A stretch of 64,000 nt of DNA from positions 151,751 through 215,750 of the forward strand of contig JAHJHG010000009.1 in NCBI GenBank assembly GCA_018823885.1, given 5' to 3'. The position numbers and the translations under genes are program-made. Shown here in pieces: positions 9,238 through 59,813 of the stretch. Origin of the DNA: Patescibacteria group bacterium. GTDB taxonomy: Bacteria > Patescibacteriota > Microgenomatia > UBA8517. Every line of letters begins with the position of its first letter. Within the stretch, counting starts at the first letter, position 1. The notes below the pieces were generated by a model, which saw nothing but the letters and a program-made list of their open reading frames with translations, did no database searches and was not told the origin of the DNA.

Positions 9238-10920
9238 ATGAATACCCAAACTAAAAAATGGGAGGTATTAAACAAATTACCTAAGGGTAAAAAGAAAATT
9301 ACCAGTAATGATATTATTAACACTCTTCTTAAGAGTCGAGGGATAACAACCCCCGAAAAAAGAAAAGAATTCTTCAATCCGGTCCTGCCTGAAAAAATTA
9401 CCTTACGCACCTTGGGACTCAGCAAGGTGGCTGTTGAAAAGGGGATAGCGAGGATAAAGAAGGCCAAAAAGAACAAAGAAAAGATTATTGTCTATGGAGA
9501 TTATGATGCTGATGGCATAACCGGTACAGCTATTCTCTGGGAAACTCTTTTTGCCTTTGATAAAGAAACACTTCCATATATCCCTGACCGGTTTACTGAA
9601 GGATATGGTTTAAATCCCAAAACTATTATTAAGTTAAAAGAGGAATATCCCAATTTAGGATTAATAATCAGTGTTGATAATGGTATTGTGGCCAATAAAG
9701 CGGTCACTAAGGCCAATAAGCTAGGAATGGATGTCATTATTACCGACCATCACAAAAAAGCAAAAACAATTCCTAAAGCACTAGCCATCATTCACACAAC
9801 TGAGATCGGTGGAGCGGCCGTTGCCTGGGTTTTTGCCAGAGAGATTAGGAAAAAACTTCGAATGCCGAAATCTGAGTTTAAAATGGGAGACGGATTGGAT
9901 TTGGCCGCGATAGGAACAATTGCCGATCAAATTTCTTTACTAGGCTCAAATCGTTCTTTTGTGAAATATGGCTTGAGAGCTTTAAACAAAACTATTCGAC
10001 CCGGATTACTTTCTCTTTTTAAAGAAGCAGCTATTAAGAGAGGAGCGATTGGTACTTATACGGTTGGTTTTATTGTTGCCCCAAGAATTAATGCTATGGG
10101 TAGACTTGAACATGCGATGGATGCTTTAAGACTTCTTTGCACAAAAAAAAGAGTTCAAGCAGAAGAGTTTGCTCATTTTTTGGGAAAAACTAACAACGAA
10201 AGACGAAAAATAGTTGATGAAGTAACTATTCATGCAACCGAGGCCGTTAAGGAGACAATGGAAACATCAATCCTTGTTGTTCATGAAAGTTATCATGAGG
10301 GTGTCATTGGGCTTGTTGCTTCCCGTTTAGTGGAAACATTTTACAAACCAACCATTGTCATTTCTCGAGGAAAAGAAATTTCTAAGGCTTCTGCCCGTTC
10401 AATTCCGGGATTTAATATCATTGATGCGATTAGAAACCTGGATAAATTAACCATTGAGGCGGGAGGTCACCCAATGGCGGCTGGGTTTAGTATCAAGACA
10501 AGCAATATAGATAAATTTACTAAGGAATTTGAGAAAGAAACAAAACTTGCGTTAAACGGGGAACTATTAACAAAAAAATTAAAAGTGGACATGGAATTGG
10601 GTTTTGATTTGTTGAGTAAAGAATTAGCGGAGATAATTTCAACTTTTGAACCAACCGGAACAGGGAATTATGCTCCGGTTTTTGCGACCAAAGGAGCAAC
10701 GGTTATTGAAGCAAGGGTTGTCGGCAAAACAGGTACACATCTAAAGTTAAAGTTGCAAGAAAACGACAAGATACTTGATACGATTGCTTTTGGCTTTGGC
10801 CACTTGTCTCCTAAACTTTCTTTGGGAAGCCTTGTTGATGTTGCTTATAATCTAGAAGAAAATGAGTGGAACGGTAGGAAGAGTTTGCAGCTCAATGCAA
10901 GGGATATAAGAATAAAATGA
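9238..10920 (+). CDS. recJ: Single-stranded-DNA-specific exonuclease RecJ
   Basis: DHH family motifs (IVYGDYDADGITG, ITDHH), DHHA1 and a C-terminal OB-like region. ATG at 9238 is preceded by AGGAGAA. The ORF track begins earlier, at 9064. Confidence 0.85.
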   Translation: MNTQTKKWEVLNKLPKGKKKITSNDIINTLLKSRGITTPEKRKEFFNPVLPEKITLRTLGLSKVAVEKGIARIKKAKKNKEKIIVYGDYDADGITGTAILWETLFAFDKETLPYIPDRFTEGYGLNPKTIIKLKEEYPNLGLIISVDNGIVANKAVTKANKLGMDVIITDHHKKAKTIPKALAIIHTTEIGGAAVAWVFAREIRKKLRMPKSEFKMGDGLDLAAIGTIADQISLLGSNRSFVKYGLRALNKTIRPGLLSLFKEAAIKRGAIGTYTVGFIVAPRINAMGRLEHAMDALRLLCTKKRVQAEEFAHFLGKTNNERRKIVDEVTIHATEAVKETMETSILVVHESYHEGVIGLVASRLVETFYKPTIVISRGKEISKASARSIPGFNIIDAIRNLDKLTIEAGGHPMAAGFSIKTSNIDKFTKEFEKETKLALNGELLTKKLKVDMELGFDLLSKELAEIISTFEPTGTGNYAPVFATKGATVIEARVVGKTGTHLKLKLQENDKILDTIAFGFGHLSPKLSLGSLVDVAYNLEENEWNGRKSLQLNARDIRIK

Positions 10921-12467
10921 ACAGGAAATTAGAAAAAGAATTTCAAGATTTAATAAAAGTTGTTAAAGAGCATGATGAAAAAGCGAATATCGAAAAAATT
11001 AAATTTGCCTGGGAATTTGCCAAGATTGCCCATACGGATCAGAAAAGATTAAGCGGGGAGCCATTTGTAAATCATCCCTTGCAAACTGCCAAAATATTGG
11101 CTGAATGGAGACTCGATTCAACCTCAATTATCGCTGCCCTCCTTCATGACACGATTGAGGATGGGGGAGCCGTCAGAGCAGACATTGTCAAAGAATTTGG
11201 GGAAGAGGTTGCTTTATTGGTAGACGGAGTGACCAAAGTGACTGCTCTTCGTTTGAAGGGGAGTAAGGAGGAAGTGTATACCGAAAACTTAAGGAAACTA
11301 CTGTTGGTGATGGCAAAAGACCTGAGGGTTGTCTTAGTGAAGCTCGCCGATAGGTTCCACAACATGCGGACATTATCAGCTCTTCCTGCAAACAAACAAA
11401 ACGAAAATGCGATAGAAACGTTAGAAATTTACGCACCACTGGCCGAGAGAGTGGGGGTAGGAGAAGTCAAAGGACAACTTGAAGATTTAGCTTTTCCCTT
11501 TGCCTATCCTAAAGAATTTAAGAAGACGATAGAAACCTCAAAGACTCATTATAAGGAAGTGGAGAGTTATATAGGGAAGATGAGAAGAGTCTTGTTGAGG
11601 AAGTTGACCAAAGAAGGCATTAAGGCAAAAATTCACGGTAGGAAGAAACACCTCTACTCATTGTGGAAAAAACTTAATCGTCCAGAGATTAATTGGGACT
11701 TCGATAAAATACATGACGTTGTGGCCATGAGGATTATTGTCAACAGAATTCCTCAATGTTATACGGCCTTGGGGGTTGTCCATGGTACATACAGACCTGT
11801 TCCCAATATTGGGGTTTCGGATTTCATTGCCCAACCAAAACCAAGCGGTTATCGATCAATTCACACAAAAGTGTTTGGTCCGGGAAGAAGAATTGTTGAA
11901 ATTCAAATTAGGACAAACAAAATGCATGAGCAAGCCGAGTTTGGCATTGCTGCCCACTGGGCATACGGAGAAGCGAAGAGTAGAGGAGTGAAAGATGTGA
12001 TATTGGAAGCGATGGGGGTAAGAACAGATGAAAACAAACTTCTTTGGGTTAAGCAACTGATTAATTGGCAGAAAGAAATTACGGACTCGAAAGAATTTTT
12101 AGAGGCAGTTAAATTTGATGCATTTCATCATCGGAATTTTATTTTCTCTCCCATGGGGGATGTTTATGATCTTCCTGATGGTTCCACGCCTGTTGATTTT
12201 GCCTACGCAATCCATTCTGATTTGGGTAGTTACACTAAAGGTGCCAGAGCGGATGGTAAGATGGTCCCGCTTGATTACAAACTAAAAAGCGGACAGGTGG
12301 TTGAAATACTAAAATCAAAAACTCCGAATGTGAATGCAGATTGGCTAGGTTTTGCAGTAACTACAGTAGCTAGACGAGAAATAAAAAAGTTTATTCAAGG
12401 CAAGACGGAGGCTCCAAAGGTTGACGATAATAATAGGCATTTGAGCAACAAGGGTAAAAAAAGGTAG
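10917..12467 (+). CDS. rel: RelA/SpoT-family (p)ppGpp synthetase/hydrolase (short form: HD, synthetase, TGS)
   Basis: HD motif LHDTIEDG. Synthetase region with YRSIHT. TGS-like VYDLPDGSTPVDFAYAIHSDLG. 516 aa. Confidence 0.85.
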   Translation: MNRKLEKEFQDLIKVVKEHDEKANIEKIKFAWEFAKIAHTDQKRLSGEPFVNHPLQTAKILAEWRLDSTSIIAALLHDTIEDGGAVRADIVKEFGEEVALLVDGVTKVTALRLKGSKEEVYTENLRKLLLVMAKDLRVVLVKLADRFHNMRTLSALPANKQNENAIETLEIYAPLAERVGVGEVKGQLEDLAFPFAYPKEFKKTIETSKTHYKEVESYIGKMRRVLLRKLTKEGIKAKIHGRKKHLYSLWKKLNRPEINWDFDKIHDVVAMRIIVNRIPQCYTALGVVHGTYRPVPNIGVSDFIAQPKPSGYRSIHTKVFGPGRRIVEIQIRTNKMHEQAEFGIAAHWAYGEAKSRGVKDVILEAMGVRTDENKLLWVKQLINWQKEITDSKEFLEAVKFDAFHHRNFIFSPMGDVYDLPDGSTPVDFAYAIHSDLGSYTKGARADGKMVPLDYKLKSGQVVEILKSKTPNVNADWLGFAVTTVARREIKKFIQGKTEAPKVDDNNRHLSNKGKKR

Positions 12468-53223: not shown

Positions 53224-56200
53224 TTGACAAGTACCATAAGACAGTGTATACAGAGGGCACTACTCAATATAATGTCTGACAAGATTTTATTTAAAATATT
53301 GTCTGCTGTGGCTTGTGTCTCATTGCTTCTTAATTCTTTTTTGGGAATTTTATTATACCCACAAACCATTTTTGCTGAAGAGGTAATCGAGAGTACAGAA
53401 TTGGAATTGATTGAAGAGGTGGTGTCAACTCCTGAGGCAAACCCGACGTCGTTACCAGCTTCTGACACAGATGAAATAGAAAAAGAATTACCTGAAACAT
53501 TAGAGGTAGAATTAGAGGAAAGCCCTGTGGTGGAAGAATCAGCTAGTTTGGTAGTTTCACTTTGGATTGAAAACGAAGATGGTTCAGTTACTACCAGTTC
53601 AACAGTTGGTGAAGGGGTGGAGTACTATTATAAAGATACTCAAACAAAAGTTGTTTTTACAAAACTTACAGAACCCGGTTACTTAACTATTAGAGAATTT
53701 GATCCTGAGGATGCTGAAGAATTAGGAATTTTAGGAAAGGCCTACGAAATCACTTCCGATATGCAGAATGGCACTTTCCTATATGATTTGACGCTTCCTC
53801 TTTCTGAAGAAGTGGGGGATGATTTTGAAATTAAATATGCCGAGAATGGAGATAGTTTAGATAATGCGCAAGTTGTTGAAGAACTCAAAGAGGAAAATGA
53901 GAATACAGTAACAATACGAGGATTAGACCATTTTACTGTTTTTATTGTTACCGATGATGAAGCAGATTATGATGGCGGGACATGGATAGATTACGCTACA
54001 CAAGGTTATTATAGTGACGGCGTTCATTATCCACTTACGGTTCCGGTTGGGCAAACTGCAACCTGGACTTTTTCTGGGATCACACCAGGAATTTACTCTG
54101 TCTATATTAGCTGGTCAACTGATATTAACAGAACTACAGCAGCGCCTTATACCCTTAATTATAGTGGCAGCTCAACATCTTTTGAGATAAATCAAGAATT
54201 ACTTGCAGATCAATCAACTGTAGGGGGAGTGGGTGAATGGTCCGGCTGGTATTCTCTAGGGGAATACTCTTTAGATACTAGCTCAACACTTGTTTTAGCT
54301 TCGGTTGAGAACTCTTCCGAATTGGATTATGTAATTGCTGATGAAATTTTAATAAGCCAAGCACCGGTTATTGTTTCTCCTTTAAATAATTCTTTTCTTA
54401 AAACATCTGAATTACTAAAAATAGATTGGACAGACTCAGTTGGGAATGGACCTTTTACCTATCGATATCAAGCATTTTCTGATGAAGGTTATTTAGTAAA
54501 TCGGTATGGACCGACTGCCTGGTTTTCTGGCTCTGAAATACCGACTCCAAATACTCCAGAGGGTGTCTACTATGTTCAGATTCAGGCTAAGGATGCAAAT
54601 GGAAATGAGACTGATTGGAGCAATGGAGCGGGTGATCCTTATAAAATCACCGTTGACAATACTGCCCCGTTAATTACTTGGGATATGCCGATTGATGGCT
54701 CAACTCATAATGGGGCAATACATTTGAAAGCTCTTTGTAATGAAAATTGTGATTATGTGAATTTCTGGTGGAGAGAAGAAAGTGAAACATACAGTTCATC
54801 ATTAAAACGATACCACTATGTTTATGTAGATGGAACAGAATTTGAGTGGGACCTGAATACGCTGAATGCTGAAAGGGCGGACGGCACATTTTATCAAATG
54901 ACAGATGGGACATATTACCTATATGCGGCTGGAAAAGATATCGCAGGAAATTGGGCCAGAACGCCGGATATTCAAATTATTGTTGACAATACGGCTCCGA
55001 CAGCTGATTTAATTTTCCCGATTCCAGGAGCTTCTTCCACTTCTTTTGAGGTAACTTTTAGTGAAAATGTTGTTGTTAGTGAAGCAGAAAATCCTGCTAA
55101 CTACTTTTTGAATAATTGGCCTGGAGCTGGAGGATCAGGAGATCTCTCTGGAGATGTATCAATTGTTTATGATTCTTCAACAAAAACATCGACAATTATA
55201 TTTATGAATTCTTCGTGGTATATTTCAGCCGAACAAGAATGGGGTGTGCAGAATATTCACGATCTAGCGGGTAATTTGTTAAGTCCAAATCCTACGATCG
55301 AAACTTCGACACCAATGATTAATCCCGATATTCCTGGGTTACCAGTTACCCTACCCAATCCTACTAATAATATTAGCCAAACTTGGAATTGGATGCCATC
55401 AATTGACCCGGGAGGAGTTTTTGCTTCTGGGATAAAAGGATATTATTCACGAATTTATGATTCATTATTAAGTGGTTTTTCGGGTGATTGGGTTTATATA
55501 GGAAATGTTTTAGGAACAATAACAAATCTAAATGAAGGAAGCTGGAAATTCTATCTTAAATCCGAAGATAGAGCTGGCAATCAAAGTGGAGAAGTTGAAT
55601 CTGAAAACTTAGTGATAGATACCACTGCTCCAGCCATGCCGACTGGCCTCAAATTTCAATCACAAAACAGGACACAAAATTTTGCTTGTGGCGCGACCGT
55701 TCCACTGCAAGTTGCTATTCCGGACTGGGATGATATAACAGGGGATCCAACATTTTCTCATTATGAATACACTTCTTTTCACCCCAACGGAAGTATTGGA
55801 TTAAATGAGCAAGTTTTGACTGTATCCGAACTCAATAATTCATGGATGCCGCCGGCAGATGGTGCATATGGATACGCTGTTAGATCGGTGGATTTTGCAG
55901 GCAATAAATCAGATTGGGCACTTTCAGCAAAAACATTGGCGGGAAGTTGTCGGATAATTTATGATTCGACAGCTCCTACTAAGCCTGTATTTACTGCACC
56001 GGCAAATAATCTTTTCACAAATGTAAACTTTGTTACCTTAACCTGGTCTGAAGGTGATGATACAGGGATAATTCAATCAGGGATTAAGGGGTATACAATC
56101 CGTTACGATTTTGTTCCTATGGGTGGCGGATTTACAATTGCTTGGACTTCTAATCTCATAGCAAATGGTAATCCCAAAACACACAGTGGTATTTATGGAC

Positions 56201-57165
56201 ATGGACAAGGCACATATACTATCTATGTTTCCACGACAGACAATGCGGGAAACGTCAGTGCTGAGAGCAATCCTCTAACTCTGAACTATGATGCAACGGC
56301 TCCCGTTGTTACATGGACCAGTCCAGCCGAAGGCGTTGTCATTTCAGGTTCGACAGTTGTTGGTACTGATGCCACTGACAGTTTCTCTGGTGTTAAGTCT
56401 GTAACCTATTCTTATCAAAAAGTAGGTGAAGGTACCTGGTCTGCACTAGATATCAAAACAAGTTTTCCCTATGAGACCATTTGGGACACAACTGGTCTTC
56501 CACTTGGCGATTACACTTTAAGAGCTATTGCTGAAGATAATGCTGGTAACAACAGCACAGAAATATTCCGCTCTGTTGGTGTTGCTGCTGTTATCTCAGG
56601 TGAATTTTGGAGTCGGCCAGGATGGGGTGAAATTACTATTAATTGGACCACAGACAGACCAACTGATGGCAGAGTTGTATATGACACAGTAAGTCATCCA
56701 ATTAACCTTACTCATCCTAATTATGGATATGCCAACACCAGTGGTACAGTTGATACTTCTCCAAAAACTTTAAGTCACACAGTAATTCTATCTGGACTTT
56801 CAAATGGGGTGACATATTATTGGCGTACCGTTTCCGCTGGATCACCGACGGCAATTAGCGCCGAACGTAGAGGTGATACCTTCAGTATTCCAGGAGGAAG
56901 CACAGGCGGAGGAGGAACTGTGGTTGGGCTAGCCACAAGCACAACACCCTTTGCTTATGATGCATTTGAAGTAATTACCGCCACAGAAGAAGAGAATTCT
57001 GGAGATATACTAGGAGAAGAAGCAGAGATTGTTACAGAAGAGCCCGAAACAGCCTTTAATGAAGCCGTAGACACTTTAACAAGGACGACTAAGGGTAGAA
57101 TTGCAGCTATTGGTGCTTTTGTGATTGGTTTAATTCTTTTCTTCTTCACTAGGCGCAGGCGTTAA
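53224..57165 (+). CDS. Giant cell-surface protein (1313 aa) with repeated Ig-like/fibronectin-like modules and a C-terminal TM anchor
   Basis: Signal/anchor at the N-terminus. Multiple modules begin VDNTAP/IDTTAP/YDSTAP/YDATAP. C-terminal hydrophobic helix followed by RRRR. Confidence 0.6.
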   Translation: MTSTIRQCIQRALLNIMSDKILFKILSAVACVSLLLNSFLGILLYPQTIFAEEVIESTELELIEEVVSTPEANPTSLPASDTDEIEKELPETLEVELEESPVVEESASLVVSLWIENEDGSVTTSSTVGEGVEYYYKDTQTKVVFTKLTEPGYLTIREFDPEDAEELGILGKAYEITSDMQNGTFLYDLTLPLSEEVGDDFEIKYAENGDSLDNAQVVEELKEENENTVTIRGLDHFTVFIVTDDEADYDGGTWIDYATQGYYSDGVHYPLTVPVGQTATWTFSGITPGIYSVYISWSTDINRTTAAPYTLNYSGSSTSFEINQELLADQSTVGGVGEWSGWYSLGEYSLDTSSTLVLASVENSSELDYVIADEILISQAPVIVSPLNNSFLKTSELLKIDWTDSVGNGPFTYRYQAFSDEGYLVNRYGPTAWFSGSEIPTPNTPEGVYYVQIQAKDANGNETDWSNGAGDPYKITVDNTAPLITWDMPIDGSTHNGAIHLKALCNENCDYVNFWWREESETYSSSLKRYHYVYVDGTEFEWDLNTLNAERADGTFYQMTDGTYYLYAAGKDIAGNWARTPDIQIIVDNTAPTADLIFPIPGASSTSFEVTFSENVVVSEAENPANYFLNNWPGAGGSGDLSGDVSIVYDSSTKTSTIIFMNSSWYISAEQEWGVQNIHDLAGNLLSPNPTIETSTPMINPDIPGLPVTLPNPTNNISQTWNWMPSIDPGGVFASGIKGYYSRIYDSLLSGFSGDWVYIGNVLGTITNLNEGSWKFYLKSEDRAGNQSGEVESENLVIDTTAPAMPTGLKFQSQNRTQNFACGATVPLQVAIPDWDDITGDPTFSHYEYTSFHPNGSIGLNEQVLTVSELNNSWMPPADGAYGYAVRSVDFAGNKSDWALSAKTLAGSCRIIYDSTAPTKPVFTAPANNLFTNVNFVTLTWSEGDDTGIIQSGIKGYTIRYDFVPMGGGFTIAWTSNLIANGNPKTHSGIYGHGQGTYTIYVSTTDNAGNVSAESNPLTLNYDATAPVVTWTSPAEGVVISGSTVVGTDATDSFSGVKSVTYSYQKVGEGTWSALDIKTSFPYETIWDTTGLPLGDYTLRAIAEDNAGNNSTEIFRSVGVAAVISGEFWSRPGWGEITINWTTDRPTDGRVVYDTVSHPINLTHPNYGYANTSGTVDTSPKTLSHTVILSGLSNGVTYYWRTVSAGSPTAISAERRGDTFSIPGGSTGGGGTVVGLATSTTPFAYDAFEVITATEEENSGDILGEEAEIVTEEPETAFNEAVDTLTRTTKGRIAAIGAFVIGLILFFFTRRRR

Positions 57166-57239
57166 TTTTTTCAACTTGCATGTAGAACGATTCTAAAGAA
57201 GTCGAAAGAGCAGGTAAAAAGTATAGCTAACCCTCAAAA

Positions 57240-57269
57240 TTGACAACAAATTCTATTATGGGATATAAT
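57240..57269 (+). promoter_or_regulatory. Consensus sigma70 promoter of paralog 1 (TTGACA, 18-nt spacer, TATAAT)
   Basis: -35 at 57240-57245 and -10 at 57264-57269. An almost identical promoter sits upstream of paralog 2. Confidence 0.55.
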
Positions 57270-57346
57270 GTCGTGTTCATTAACAACTTGCGGAAAAGGT
57301 TGTTGTCAATAATCCGAGTAGTCACACACAAGACAAGGAGGAAACC

Positions 57347-58369
57347 ATGTCTGATAGAGGACCCAACTGGGTTGATTATGCAAATTTGGGAGCCAATATT
57401 GTTCAAGCAGGTCAGTTGGCGGGAGTGCGCGACAGGCTTAGTGAGTTGGCCCGCATAGAGACAAATCGAGAGAGACGGATTCAACTCGAAAACGAACTAA
57501 GGCAGTTTATCTTCGAGATAGAAGAGGGGATTGAACGTCTCACGGGTTATCTCCAAGAGGCACCTTTGGGTGTTTATATTACGGCGCACATACTAGAAAA
57601 TATTTTTGATGAAGTGGGCGTCGAGCCGGCTACTTTCCAGCAGTTTACGGATAAGGACCGAGTTAAGCAGGTTCGAGCAGCAAATTCCCTGATAACGGAA
57701 AATGCAGCAAATGAGTTAAGTGAAAAAGAAGTTGAAAAAGTGCGTTTTCACTTAAAACTCTCTGATCGTTTTTCTGATCTCGACTTGTTAATTTCTCATC
57801 TTAAGGCTTCCCAAAAACTACCAGATATGAAAAAGAAGTTGGAGAAACTTTCCGATGAAAAAAACAGAGGTGTGAAATATTGGGTATTGCTTATAATAGG
57901 GGGATTTCTTGTTCCGCTATTTGCACTTGATTATTTAGGTCCCAATGTCCTGTGTTGGATTGGTTTGATAGAAGTAATAGGGTTTGCTGGTCTACTCTAC
58001 TCGTCGTCGTCGGAAGAGTATAGAAAAGTAAAAAACGAGGGGGAAGAACTTCGAAAAAAGATTCTTTCATCAGAGAAACTTCATGTACTCTATGAGGTTT
58101 TTGGCGAAGGCTTAACGATCTCCCAATACGAAGAGATAGAGAAAGAGACGAGGGATTACATAGGCCAAGCAACAGAGAAGGATAAGGATGGGAATTCTCT
58201 CCCTAAGTCTTTGTTCGAATTAACATTTCCACCACAGATATTTGAGCCGGAAAAAAGCTTGGACAAAGTAGTACATACCCGTGAAAATTGGTTATGTCCC
58301 AAATGTGGTGGTGGTAACCCCGGCAATCGAACAACTTGTTTGGGTTGTAACACCGAGAGAAGATGGTGA
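57347..58369 (+). CDS. Hypothetical membrane protein, paralog 1 of a tandem pair (N-terminal conserved domain, central two-TM hairpin, C-terminal Cys4 zinc ribbon)
   Basis: N-terminus MSDRGPNWVDYANLGANIVQAGQL. TM region WVLLIIGGFLVPLF...IGLIEVIGFAGLLY. C-terminus CPKCGGG...CLGCN. 340 aa. Confidence 0.55.
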   Translation: MSDRGPNWVDYANLGANIVQAGQLAGVRDRLSELARIETNRERRIQLENELRQFIFEIEEGIERLTGYLQEAPLGVYITAHILENIFDEVGVEPATFQQFTDKDRVKQVRAANSLITENAANELSEKEVEKVRFHLKLSDRFSDLDLLISHLKASQKLPDMKKKLEKLSDEKNRGVKYWVLLIIGGFLVPLFALDYLGPNVLCWIGLIEVIGFAGLLYSSSSEEYRKVKNEGEELRKKILSSEKLHVLYEVFGEGLTISQYEEIEKETRDYIGQATEKDKDGNSLPKSLFELTFPPQIFEPEKSLDKVVHTRENWLCPKCGGGNPGNRTTCLGCNTERRW

Positions 58370-58453
58370 GGGATTTAAACGAGATGAATGGGAAAATGTT
58401 TATTTTGATTATTCCGTCACCAGATAGAGAAAGTAACTTTCCGCAAGATTTAA

Positions 58454-58540
58454 GCCCTCCAATCGTAAGAAGATTGCCTTACTGTTGCACACTTTGTGTG
58501 TTATTACAGATAGGTAATTGAGATTGGAGGGTTTTTTATT
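58454..58540 (+). terminator. Rho-independent terminator of paralog 1 (stem GCCCTCCAATC / GATTGGAGGG, long loop, T6)
   Basis: 11-bp GC-rich stem whose 3' arm (58522-58532) runs directly into TTTTTTATTT. Confidence 0.45.
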
Positions 58541-58647
58541 TGGATTACTTTTATGAACCACTAGCGCTCAATAATTATTTCTTCAGCTTATAGATAAACA
58601 AACATAGAGAGATCTTAAAGATGAGCAAGAAGGGTAAAAGCTCTAAA

Positions 58648-58677
58648 TTGACAACAAATTCTGTTATAGGATATAAT
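58648..58677 (+). promoter_or_regulatory. Consensus sigma70 promoter of paralog 2 (TTGACA, 18-nt spacer, TATAAT)
   Basis: -35 at 58648-58653 and -10 at 58672-58677. The TTGACAACAAATTCT.TTAT.GGATATAAT block is shared with the paralog 1 promoter. Confidence 0.55.
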
Positions 58678-58752
58678 ACAACGTTCTTTAAAACTTGCGG
58701 AAAAGATTCGATCCGAATACGCGGAAAGCCCATATTAAAAAGGAGAAAGCCA

Positions 58753-59649
58753 ATGTCTAACAGAGGATCCGACTGGGTCGGTTACGCAAATTTGGGAGCC
58801 AATATTGTCCAGGCAGGTCAATTGTCTAGAGTGCAACGAAATCTTGAAGGCTTAGCCTTGATAGAAATCGCCAGGGAGGAACGCGTCCGACTTGAAAATG
58901 AATTAAGGCAATATATCTTCGAAACAGAAGAAGGGCTCAAGCGCCTGAGGAAATATATTGACAAAGCTCCCTTAGGAGTTTTTACTGTTACTTCGCAATT
59001 AGATAGTTTCTTCAGGGAGATACGACTTGAACCCGAAGCTTTCCAGCAATTTGTCGATAAAGACAGGGTACAAAGTTTGTTTAGATCAGTTGAGGAGATC
59101 TTTGAAGAAACATCAAAGTTTTTGGACCAGAATGTAATGGAAGAGGTAAGAAGCAAGGTTGAACTTGTTCAGAAACTGCTTGGTTATCTGAAGATTTTAC
59201 CTAAACTGACCGAAACTACCAACGAAGACAAGAAACTGGAGAAAAAAAGAGCTTTTGTCATCACCATGTTGTTGGGAGTAGCGATATTTACATTGATCGC
59301 TTTTGGTTTTGATACTCCTGGTAATTGTATCTGTGGTGGGTCGGGCGTGGTGTATTTAGCAATCTTGATGTTCGCACTCGCCAAAGGTCCATATGGAGAT
59401 AAGAAACGGGGAGTGAGAATTAAACAGCTTGAGGAACTTCAGAAACAAGTGAGCTTGCTAGCAAAAGAAATTAATAGTATTGCTGGTAAAGAATTGACGG
59501 AGAAGAAGGAATACGAGCAAGTTCTTGATGAGGCGCAGACGCGTTTGAAAATGTTGACACAAGAAGATAAGGATGGAGAACAGTTCGTTGAATCTTTGTC
59601 TACGATTCTTTTTCAACCGCAGTTCTCGAAAACAGCGCAAGACGAGTAG
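58753..59649 (+). CDS. Hypothetical membrane protein, paralog 2 (lacks the C-terminal zinc ribbon)
   Basis: MSNRGSDWVGYANLGANIVQAGQL aligns with paralog 1. ATG at 58753 is preceded by AAGGAG. The ORF track's start at 58621 would read through the promoter. Confidence 0.55.
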   Translation: MSNRGSDWVGYANLGANIVQAGQLSRVQRNLEGLALIEIAREERVRLENELRQYIFETEEGLKRLRKYIDKAPLGVFTVTSQLDSFFREIRLEPEAFQQFVDKDRVQSLFRSVEEIFEETSKFLDQNVMEEVRSKVELVQKLLGYLKILPKLTETTNEDKKLEKKRAFVITMLLGVAIFTLIAFGFDTPGNCICGGSGVVYLAILMFALAKGPYGDKKRGVRIKQLEELQKQVSLLAKEINSIAGKELTEKKEYEQVLDEAQTRLKMLTQEDKDGEQFVESLSTILFQPQFSKTAQDE

Positions 59650-59667
59650 TGATTTTCCGCAAGGAAT

Positions 59668-59720
59668 GAGCCCTCCAAATCATCGTTATGATGATATGTT
59701 TTGAGGGCTCTTTTTCTTTT
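59668..59720 (+). terminator. Rho-independent terminator of paralog 2 (GAGCCCTCCAAATCAT / ATGTTTTGAGGGCTC, then T5CT4)
   Basis: Imperfect 12-14-bp stem followed by a T-run. Confidence 0.5.
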
Positions 59721-59813
59721 TCGCCAGACACAGATAGTAATTTCTCCAGCTTGCAGACAGCTTCTGAGGCGTTTAAGATGAAATAGATACAGTTATACCC
59801 TTATTGGGGTTTA

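Follow-up and report, generated by a model that had tools for sequence, protein, structure and literature searches.

Conserved end-to-end complementarity adjoining a boxA-like leader in two tandem gene cassettes of a Patescibacteria genome

The stretch of DNA analyzed here, 64 kb of a Patescibacteria metagenome-assembled genome (contig JAHJHG010000009.1, positions 151,751 to 215,750; hereafter the window), carries two neighbouring paralogous genes, and the cassettes around them (w1 and w2) each contain a short box in the 5' untranslated region (UTR) that is complementary to a box in the 3' UTR. We find that these boxes form a real, conserved and co-varying 5'/3' pairing module, which is fused to a boxA-like leader and occurs at two anciently duplicated genes. 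The complementarity most plausibly acts at the RNA level, and pairing of the mRNA ends is well supported computationally. The best explanation, in our view, is a boxA-like leader combined with 5'/3' end pairing on mRNAs of one low-GC subclade of Patescibacteria, the two genes being old tandem paralogs that would each be transcribed as a unit of its own, from a strong sigma-70-type promoter to an intrinsic terminator; taken as a whole, we consider this explanation about evenly balanced between right and wrong.

Complementary boxes flank both genes

A preliminary description of this DNA, made from its letters and reading frames, had proposed tandem autonomous cassettes with complementary sequences at the two ends of each transcript. 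Both parts of the proposal were borne out: the paralogs are accompanied by their own promoters, Shine-Dalgarno (SD) sites, boxes and terminators, and the reverse complement of the 12-mer found in each leader is present in the trailer of the same cassette. The genes and boxes are as follows (lengths in amino acids, aa, or nucleotides, nt; MFE, minimum free energy).

57347–58369 (+), coding sequence of paralog 1, 340 aa, NCBI KKH23_03855, annotated 'hypothetical'; N-terminal helical domain, hairpin of two transmembrane helices, coiled coil and putative C-terminal Cys4 zinc ribbon
58753–59649 (+), coding sequence of paralog 2, 298 aa, zinc ribbon absent, NCBI KKH23_03850, annotated 'hypothetical'
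57287–57298 (+), 5' box 1, CTTGCGGAAAAG, exact; pairs with 58437–58447 in the MFE structure of the 1267-nt transcript, probability ~1.0
58694–58705 (+), 5' box 2, CTTGCGGAAAAG, exact; pairs with 59653–59663, probability 0.98–1.0
58437–58447 (+), 3' box 1, CTTTCCGCAAG, 68 nt past the stop codon and 5 nt ahead of the terminator stem; conserved in loci L001 and L008
59653–59663 (+), 3' box 2, TTTTCCGCAAG, 3 nt past the stop codon
58721–58728 (+), second copy of GCGGAAAG in the 5' UTR of cassette 2, 27 nt after the first; read from the sequence

The 5' and 3' boxes share 10 contiguous Watson-Crick pairs in copy 1 and 11 in copy 2. According to a longest-complement test, an equally long complement between the two UTRs would arise by chance with P=0.0015–0.015 per cassette. 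The four copies are the only ones in the 64-kb window, where no other match with up to one mismatch was found, and the boxes are thus no dispersed repeat. Their placement just past the stop codon, as first described, holds for copy 2 (3 nt) and fails for copy 1 (68 nt). Comparing the whole 5' and 3' UTRs with RNAduplex gave no difference from shuffled sequences, because these are long and AU-rich, and we used the longest-complement test, covariation and full-length folding instead.

Two further structures concern the same leaders. The 5' box of copy 1 can also be taken up by a local hairpin, AACAACUU/AGGUUGUU, and in cassette 2 a small hairpin, AUUCGAUCCGAAU, lies between both copies of GCGGAAAG, either of which could pair with the 3' box. 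A second helix in w1, CAAUAAUC/GAUUAUUG, was dropped because it is not conserved in L001 or L008.

The pairing is conserved and co-varies among homologous cassettes

We retrieved the flanks of 12 loci encoding members of the protein family. Leader and trailer features occur only in a group of low to moderate GC content that comprises w1, w2, L001, L008, L009, L146, L010 and L147, with only the 5' end available for L010 and only the 3' end for L147. L008, L009 and L010 are syntenic, each with tsaB as the next gene upstream, and L010 additionally has FtsX and TsaE upstream, like the window.

The 5'/3' complementarity is kept in all six complete cassettes (w1, w2, L001, L008, L009 and L146), always with the core TGCG/CGCA. 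In each of the six the 3' box lies 5–12 nt ahead of the terminator stem, but anywhere between 0 and 74 nt past the stop codon. The boxes of L009 read CCUGCGGA/UCCGCAG, and L146 has a different pair, CCUAAUAAUCUGCGA/UCGCAGAU-AUUAGG, forming 14 base pairs (bp) with one bulge. We aligned the boxes without gaps, anchored by hand on the core (alignment A7; six sequences, three of them close relatives). In this alignment 91.7% of the cells are paired, as against 22–52% when the register is slid, and 4 of the 10 core pairs show double-sided changes, with one-sided changes at none. The covariation score is 0.28 vs 0.14 in shuffles, a value reached in 0 of 500 of them. For L146 the cognate duplex is calculated at -19.9 kcal/mol vs -8 to -10 kcal/mol for non-cognate combinations. 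Folding of the full transcripts (1036–1290 nt) places the box-box helix in the MFE structure of all six cassettes, with pair probabilities of 0.98–1.00. The core helix measures 9–14 bp; interrupted extensions to 18–25 bp are not conserved.

The suggestion that the mRNA ends pair as RNA is therefore strengthened by conservation, compensatory changes and whole-transcript folding. Loss of the complementarity in homologous cassettes had been named as the observation that would speak against it, and instead the complementarity is present in every complete cassette, with compensatory changes.

A boxA-like motif lies at the predicted transcript start

Immediately 5' of the 5' box, at the predicted transcript start, stands an invariant block, GTTCTTTAACA, which the preliminary description did not mention and which shifts the probable mechanism. 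The elements of this region in the window are the following.

57240–57269 (+), promoter 1, TTGACA-18-TATAAT, perfect 12/12 match
58648–58677 (+), promoter 2, TTGACA-18-TATAAT, perfect match
57275–57285 (+), boxA-like element 1, GTTCATTAACA, at predicted +1, 5 nt past the -10 hexamer; 1 mismatch to GYTCTTTAANA
58683–58693 (+), boxA-like element 2, GTTCTTTAAAA, at predicted +1, 5 nt past the -10 hexamer; perfect match to GYTCTTTAANA
57335–57341 (+), SD site 1, AAGGAGG, 5 nt ahead of the ATG; read from the sequence
58740–58745 (+), SD site 2, AAGGAG

The two promoters are the only perfect TTGACA-18-TATAAT matches in the 64-kb window, in line with the scarcity noted in the preliminary description; allowing one mismatch raises the number to 3, against 0.61 expected. 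The 18-nt spacer is 1 nt above the optimum. Between w1 and w2 the spacers are identical at 16/18 positions, and the spacers of orthologous promoters elsewhere are unrelated; a shared operator or a short conversion tract is possible.

Across six homologous leaders (alignment A4) conservation in the upstream region is highest at GTTC.TT.A.A.C.TGCGGAAA, which surpasses even the promoter hexamers and has diverged flanks. Its first 11 nt match GYTCTTTAANA, the boxA consensus used by Baniulyte et al. to locate NusB/NusE sites outside rRNA (PMC5725501), perfectly in four of the six leaders (w2, L001, L008, L010) and with 1 mismatch in w1 (T5A) and L009 (A8G). An 11-mer matching this consensus is expected by chance about once per 64 kb, and the argument for boxA therefore rests on conservation at a homologous position and not on mere occurrence. 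GTTC follows the -10 hexamer by 5–6 nt, at the predicted +1, in 8/9 leaders when further leaders in L146 and L147 are included. The orthologous promoter of L009 (TTGATA-17-TATAAT, with GTCG after it as in w1) is found ~80 nt upstream of the boxA-like block, which must therefore be transcribed, independently of promoter geometry. The insert of ~75 nt between the two (L009:120-195) contains a hairpin, CAGGCGATTGCGCCUG, 5' of boxA, that recalls the rrn boxB hairpin.

The predicted transcript start is the G of GTTC, 11–12 nt upstream of the 5' box. The box had been thought to begin the transcript; it is not at the very start, and it is downstream of the predicted start in every case. A position upstream of the predicted start, which would have removed it from the mRNA, was found in none of the leaders, and in L009 the box is ~80 nt from the promoter. 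Taken together, we regard the assignment of GTTCTTTAACA as boxA as a well-founded lead rather than a demonstrated identity.

We scanned for the leader motif more widely. A scan of a genome collection with TTCTTTRAMARCYTGCGGA returned >120 matches from many phyla, essentially all of them chance matches in coding DNA with no rRNA nearby; a metagenome scan with GTTCWTTRAMARCYTGCGGAAA returned the window's own contig and chance matches only, as a viral scan returned only chance matches. No rRNA is encoded in the window. Two other boxA-like matches in the window were set aside. One, TGCTCTTTAACAA at 10960-10972(-), is identical to the E. coli rrn boxA, and was judged a chance match, being antisense within a 516-aa open reading frame (ORF; 10917–12467, +) and without a promoter. 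The other, GTTCTTCAACAACTTGCGC at 53866-53884(-), has 2 differences from the leader consensus, and only 0.06 such matches are expected; it is antisense in a 1313-aa ORF (coding ...AQVVEEL...) without an upstream promoter and is probably due to chance as well.

Downstream of the family gene, L146 has a second promoter (L146:1313-1454; TTGAAC-17-TAGAAT), followed after 6 nt by the leader TGTTCTTTGGCAGCTTGCGGAGAG and then by an unrelated gene starting MSTCPICG. Likewise, L147 has a second promoter downstream (L147:~975-1040; TTGACA-17-TATACC), followed after 6 nt by the leader GTTCTTTGACAACTTGCGGGAGAA, without a clear ORF after it. The module of promoter, boxA and box is therefore not confined to the protein family.

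The regulatory blocks are conserved between anciently duplicated genes

The two paralogs align end to end over 306 aa with 39% identity (E=1e-54), and synonymous sites between them are saturated (pS 0.69, dS ~2, dN/dS ~0.3). A nucleotide alignment of both cassettes, a check proposed with the preliminary description, bounds the duplicated unit at ~100 nt upstream of the promoter and ~60 nt beyond the terminator. Within this unit the promoters are identical at 28/30 positions and the sequence from GTTC through the box at ~21/23, while the 5 nt separating the -10 hexamer from GTTC all differ and the remaining 5' UTR is ~50% identical. That the promoter and boxA plus box are nearly identical despite saturated synonymous sites, and are separated by diverged sequence, points to purifying selection acting on discrete blocks of both cassettes. 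This mosaic of conserved and diverged segments is at odds with a single recent gene-conversion tract.

The close relatives L001 (65% aa identity) and L008 (62%) have one gene copy each, L001 with the same CAP-domain gene directly after it, and no tandem paralogs were found in the other loci retrieved. As judged from these loci, the two-copy state is therefore specific to the window's genome among the genomes sampled.

A proposed mechanism and its known counterparts

In the mechanism that we propose, the transcript would start with the boxA-like GUUCUUUAACA, resembling the NusB/NusE motif of rRNA leaders, and run straight into the 5' box. This box would pair with the 3' box 5–12 nt ahead of the terminator hairpin, so that the ends of the finished mRNA would be joined by a helix of 9–14 bp. 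NusB/S10 bound to boxA might stay attached to the elongating polymerase, as happens in rRNA operons, might shield transcription from Rho, and might hand the 5' box to the 3' box as the latter emerges, just before termination. The end-to-end helix could then control nuclease access, either protecting the ends or creating a target for RNase III or RNase Y, as in the hbs and icaR mRNAs. Ribosomes terminating at a stop codon that borders on the 3' box (w2, L009, L146, L147) would open the helix. Of these steps, we infer Nus binding, the start sites and the physiological effect together with its direction (stabilising or destabilising). A more far-reaching version, which we consider a speculative and fairly unlikely one, has the cassettes producing closed-loop mRNAs on the rRNA principle: Nus-bound boxA would ride with the polymerase and circularise the message co-transcriptionally, melting at the stop codon would couple translation termination to 5'-end accessibility, decay or re-initiation, and the module, which recurs before unrelated sequence in L146 and L147, would be a general expression device of the lineage.

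The closest architectural parallel is found in rRNA operons. According to PMC4807359, NusB/S10 on boxA stay tethered to RNA polymerase there, and looping of the nascent RNA by NusB/S10 has been proposed, citing Bubunenko 2013, to bring leader and trailer together so that the 16S stem forms. The cassettes share with these operons a strong promoter, and a boxA-type motif adjoining the 5' arm of a long-range helix whose other strand lies >1 kb downstream and is transcribed last. They differ from them in enclosing a protein-coding mRNA, in the length of the helix (9–14 bp vs at least 20 bp in rRNA) and in the position of boxA, which is at +1 here and tens of nt downstream in the rRNA leaders.

Among mRNAs, the hbs message of B. 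subtilis has a 14-bp pairing between its 5' and 3' UTRs that controls access of RNase Y (PMC5737220). The cassettes resemble it in the long-range UTR pairing, hbs mRNA being short, highly expressed and monocistronic; however, hbs has no boxA, belongs to another gene family and phylum, and its pairing overlaps the RNase Y site. In S. aureus icaR the two UTRs of one mRNA likewise pair, through a 3' motif that is an anti-SD sequence, blocks the ribosome-binding site and recruits RNase III (PMC3868564). In the cassettes the 5' box lies ~40 nt 5' of the SD and pairing leaves the SD out, and because the SD is unmasked icaR is the less close parallel of the two. Non-rRNA transcripts regulated through boxA (suhB, a ParE-like toxin gene and CRISPR arrays) have been identified in Proteobacteria by chromatin immunoprecipitation and genetics (PMC5725501, PMC7665894). 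These also match the boxA consensus in a non-rRNA leader, conserved across related species, but have no 3' complement, whereas the cassettes are known from sequence.

Alternative readings of the boxes

Several observations weigh against end pairing guided by a boxA leader. The 9–14-bp core helix is short for RNase III, and four leaders can form a local hairpin that would compete for the 5' box. The comparison comprises only six cassettes, three of them closely related, in an alignment anchored by hand. The boxes are absent in distant, often GC-richer family members (L002, L139, L141, L142, L145), which makes the element lineage-specific and not tied to protein function. For the boxA part, GTTCTTTAACA was compared with the consensus from PMC5725501 alone, it is unusual for a boxA to stand right at the 5' end, and both the transcript start and the 3' end are predictions. 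Finally, the compensatory changes are all from one Watson-Crick pair to another, with G-U intermediates absent, and would fit a DNA inverted repeat equally well; covariation alone therefore cannot tell pairing in RNA from co-evolution of an inverted repeat in DNA.

This last point leads to a DNA-level ALTERNATIVES, in which the boxes would be inverted repeats for a site-specific recombinase and inversion of 1.1 kb would uncouple the gene from its promoter, resulting in phase-variable ON/OFF expression or cassette shuffling. Like invertons, the cassettes have short inverted repeats (10–14 bp) around a segment, here each whole gene with the promoter outside, and both repeats change together across species in the strictly Watson-Crick manner that a recombinase-site model predicts. 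They differ from invertons in that the segment would not include the promoter, and neither a recombinase gene close by nor an inverted variant was found. None of the neighbouring genes scanned with Pfam (FtsX, PcsB-like, LTD, TsaE, epimerase, Ig-repeat protein, CAP, an RNaseH-like domain of unknown function and sugar-nucleotide enzymes) encodes a recombinase, the orientation is the same in 12/12 assembled contigs read, from at least seven samples (7 shown to be 100% identical over the cassettes), and the orthologous cassettes are all ON-oriented. Furthermore, the repeats are positioned exactly within the two ends of the transcript and are joined to a conserved motif of RNA type, and the arms of L146 are separated by a 1-nt bulge. 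We therefore hold inversion to be improbable, and the action of the boxes as DNA inverted repeats, which had been raised at the outset, is left unsupported. A mobile element is unlikely too, as the locus is syntenic across species.

The leader could also be a protein-binding site, either for a CsrA-like repressor contacting GGA in a hairpin loop and the SD or for a DNA regulator with an operator, which would make the complementarity secondary. GCGGAAA indeed falls into a local hairpin loop in w1, L001, L008 and L010, cassette 2 offers a second GCGGAAAG and an SD GGA, and the promoter spacer is unexpectedly conserved between the window copies. Yet the hairpin is missing in w2, L009 and L146, no CsrA was identified, the position of the L009 block ~75 nt from the promoter argues against an operator, and the 3' box with its co-variation is left unexplained, so that we see this as an unlikely, though not negligible, reading. 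Least probable is that the complementarity is a functionless chance feature inherited through duplication and descent, the genes being no more than two well-expressed paralogs. Short helices, few sequences and a P of 0.25 for L009 alone in the longest-complement shuffle test speak for it; however, the blocks are conserved against saturated synonymous divergence, four changes are double-sided and none one-sided, and L146 has replaced the pair by a lineage-specific one of 14 bp.

Terminators and flanking genes

Folding supports the claim that each cassette has its own terminator; a simple terminator scan had missed both because their loops are long.

58452–58537 (+), intrinsic terminator 1, 13-bp GCCCUCC stem, long structured loop and U-run; -47.3 kcal/mol, z=-5.46
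59668–59721 (+), intrinsic terminator 2, GAGCCCUC stem and U-run; -25.4 kcal/mol, z=-4.29

The 5' arm of the terminator stem reads (G/A)(C/T)CCTCC in 7/7 cassettes (58454–58460 and 59670–59676 in the window; L001, L008, L009, L146 and L147), and the loops of these seven terminators are wholly different. The arms contain CCUCC, which is anti-SD-like, and the SD-like GGAGGG on the 3' side. In the window the arm motif has 7 matches vs 4.5 expected, the others lying within genes, and it is not a general terminator motif. A 52-aa ORF (58363–58521) that overlaps the stop codon, 3' UTR and terminator of copy 1 was called as a gene in one ENA assembly (L150); it is probably spurious, since its start codon is not kept in L001. 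No known RNA family was found by Rfam over leader, trailer or terminator, with the gathering threshold applied to the window and an E-value threshold to the homologous loci.

Upstream of cassette 1, a 1313-aa protein is encoded at 53224–57165 that is likely a large cell-surface protein: it has a Golvesin_C domain and several bacterial Ig-like and Y_Y_Y domains, and at its C-terminus RRRR comes after a hydrophobic anchor. L008, L009 and L010 lack this gene at the orthologous place, and tsaB is the direct upstream neighbour of the cassette there. Position 57175, 10 nt past the stop codon of the 1313-aa gene, is the start base of three independent assemblies (ENA k141_294102, NCBI JAHITM010000013.1, Logan SRR10598177), which suggests strain-level structural variation or an assembly-graph branch directly upstream of cassette 1.

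The gene neighbourhoods of the family as a whole are heterogeneous and lack a consistent functional hint. A distant family member directly follows a Ser/Thr protein kinase gene in L139:57-2988 (35-nt gap), another is near RHS toxin and SMI1/HEAT immunity-like genes in L002:1-11068, and a third is near a WXG100-like gene in L142:1-3321; such neighbours may be hints to function.

The protein family

Word-indexed searches returned few relatives; an exhaustive profile search yielded 388 cluster representatives at E<=1e-3 and 211 at E<=1e-10. The family had been called unknown; this is correct for its annotation, as no assignment was found in Pfam, NCBIfam, PDB, PADLOC or PHROGs, but with 388 clusters it is widespread. 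The Cys4 zinc ribbon ascribed to copy 1 is present only there, with a weak match of aa 314–338 to the RanBP2-type zinc ribbon (PF00641; E=0.0045, 16.7 bits vs the Pfam gathering cut-off of 27), and the Cys4 pattern is conserved in the family members P0002–P0004. The C-terminus of copy 1 thus appears zinc-ribbon-like, with membership in PF00641 unproven.

An AF2 model of paralog 1 built from a 26-sequence alignment (pLDDT 84, pTM 0.69) is all-helical, with very long helices, a tight two-helix membrane hairpin at ~aa 176–220 and a small C-terminal ribbon. The hairpin is flanked by a 175-aa N-terminal domain and by the C-terminal coiled coil with the Cys4 ribbon. No signal peptide was found in the protein, and because of this, the basic residues on both sides of the hairpin and the Cys4 ribbon, both large domains are predicted to be cytoplasmic. 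The earlier idea of a surface or host-interaction factor consequently finds no support.

Significance

To our knowledge, long-range pairing between 5' and 3' UTRs has been documented for only a handful of bacterial mRNAs, and the cases of boxA outside rRNA that we know of (suhB, a toxin gene and CRISPR arrays) are all from Proteobacteria. The cassettes combine the two features in a single conserved, co-varying module, and do so in a phylum that is uncultivated, has reduced genomes and is almost unstudied as regards post-transcriptional control. If the pairing alone is true, the cassettes would add to the hbs type a clean new example with phylogenetic support. Should the Nus link hold as well, the role of the rRNA antitermination complex as an 'RNA-looping chaperone' would extend to the pairing of mRNA ends, and Patescibacteria would possess a compact, portable expression module consisting of promoter, leader, trailer and terminator.

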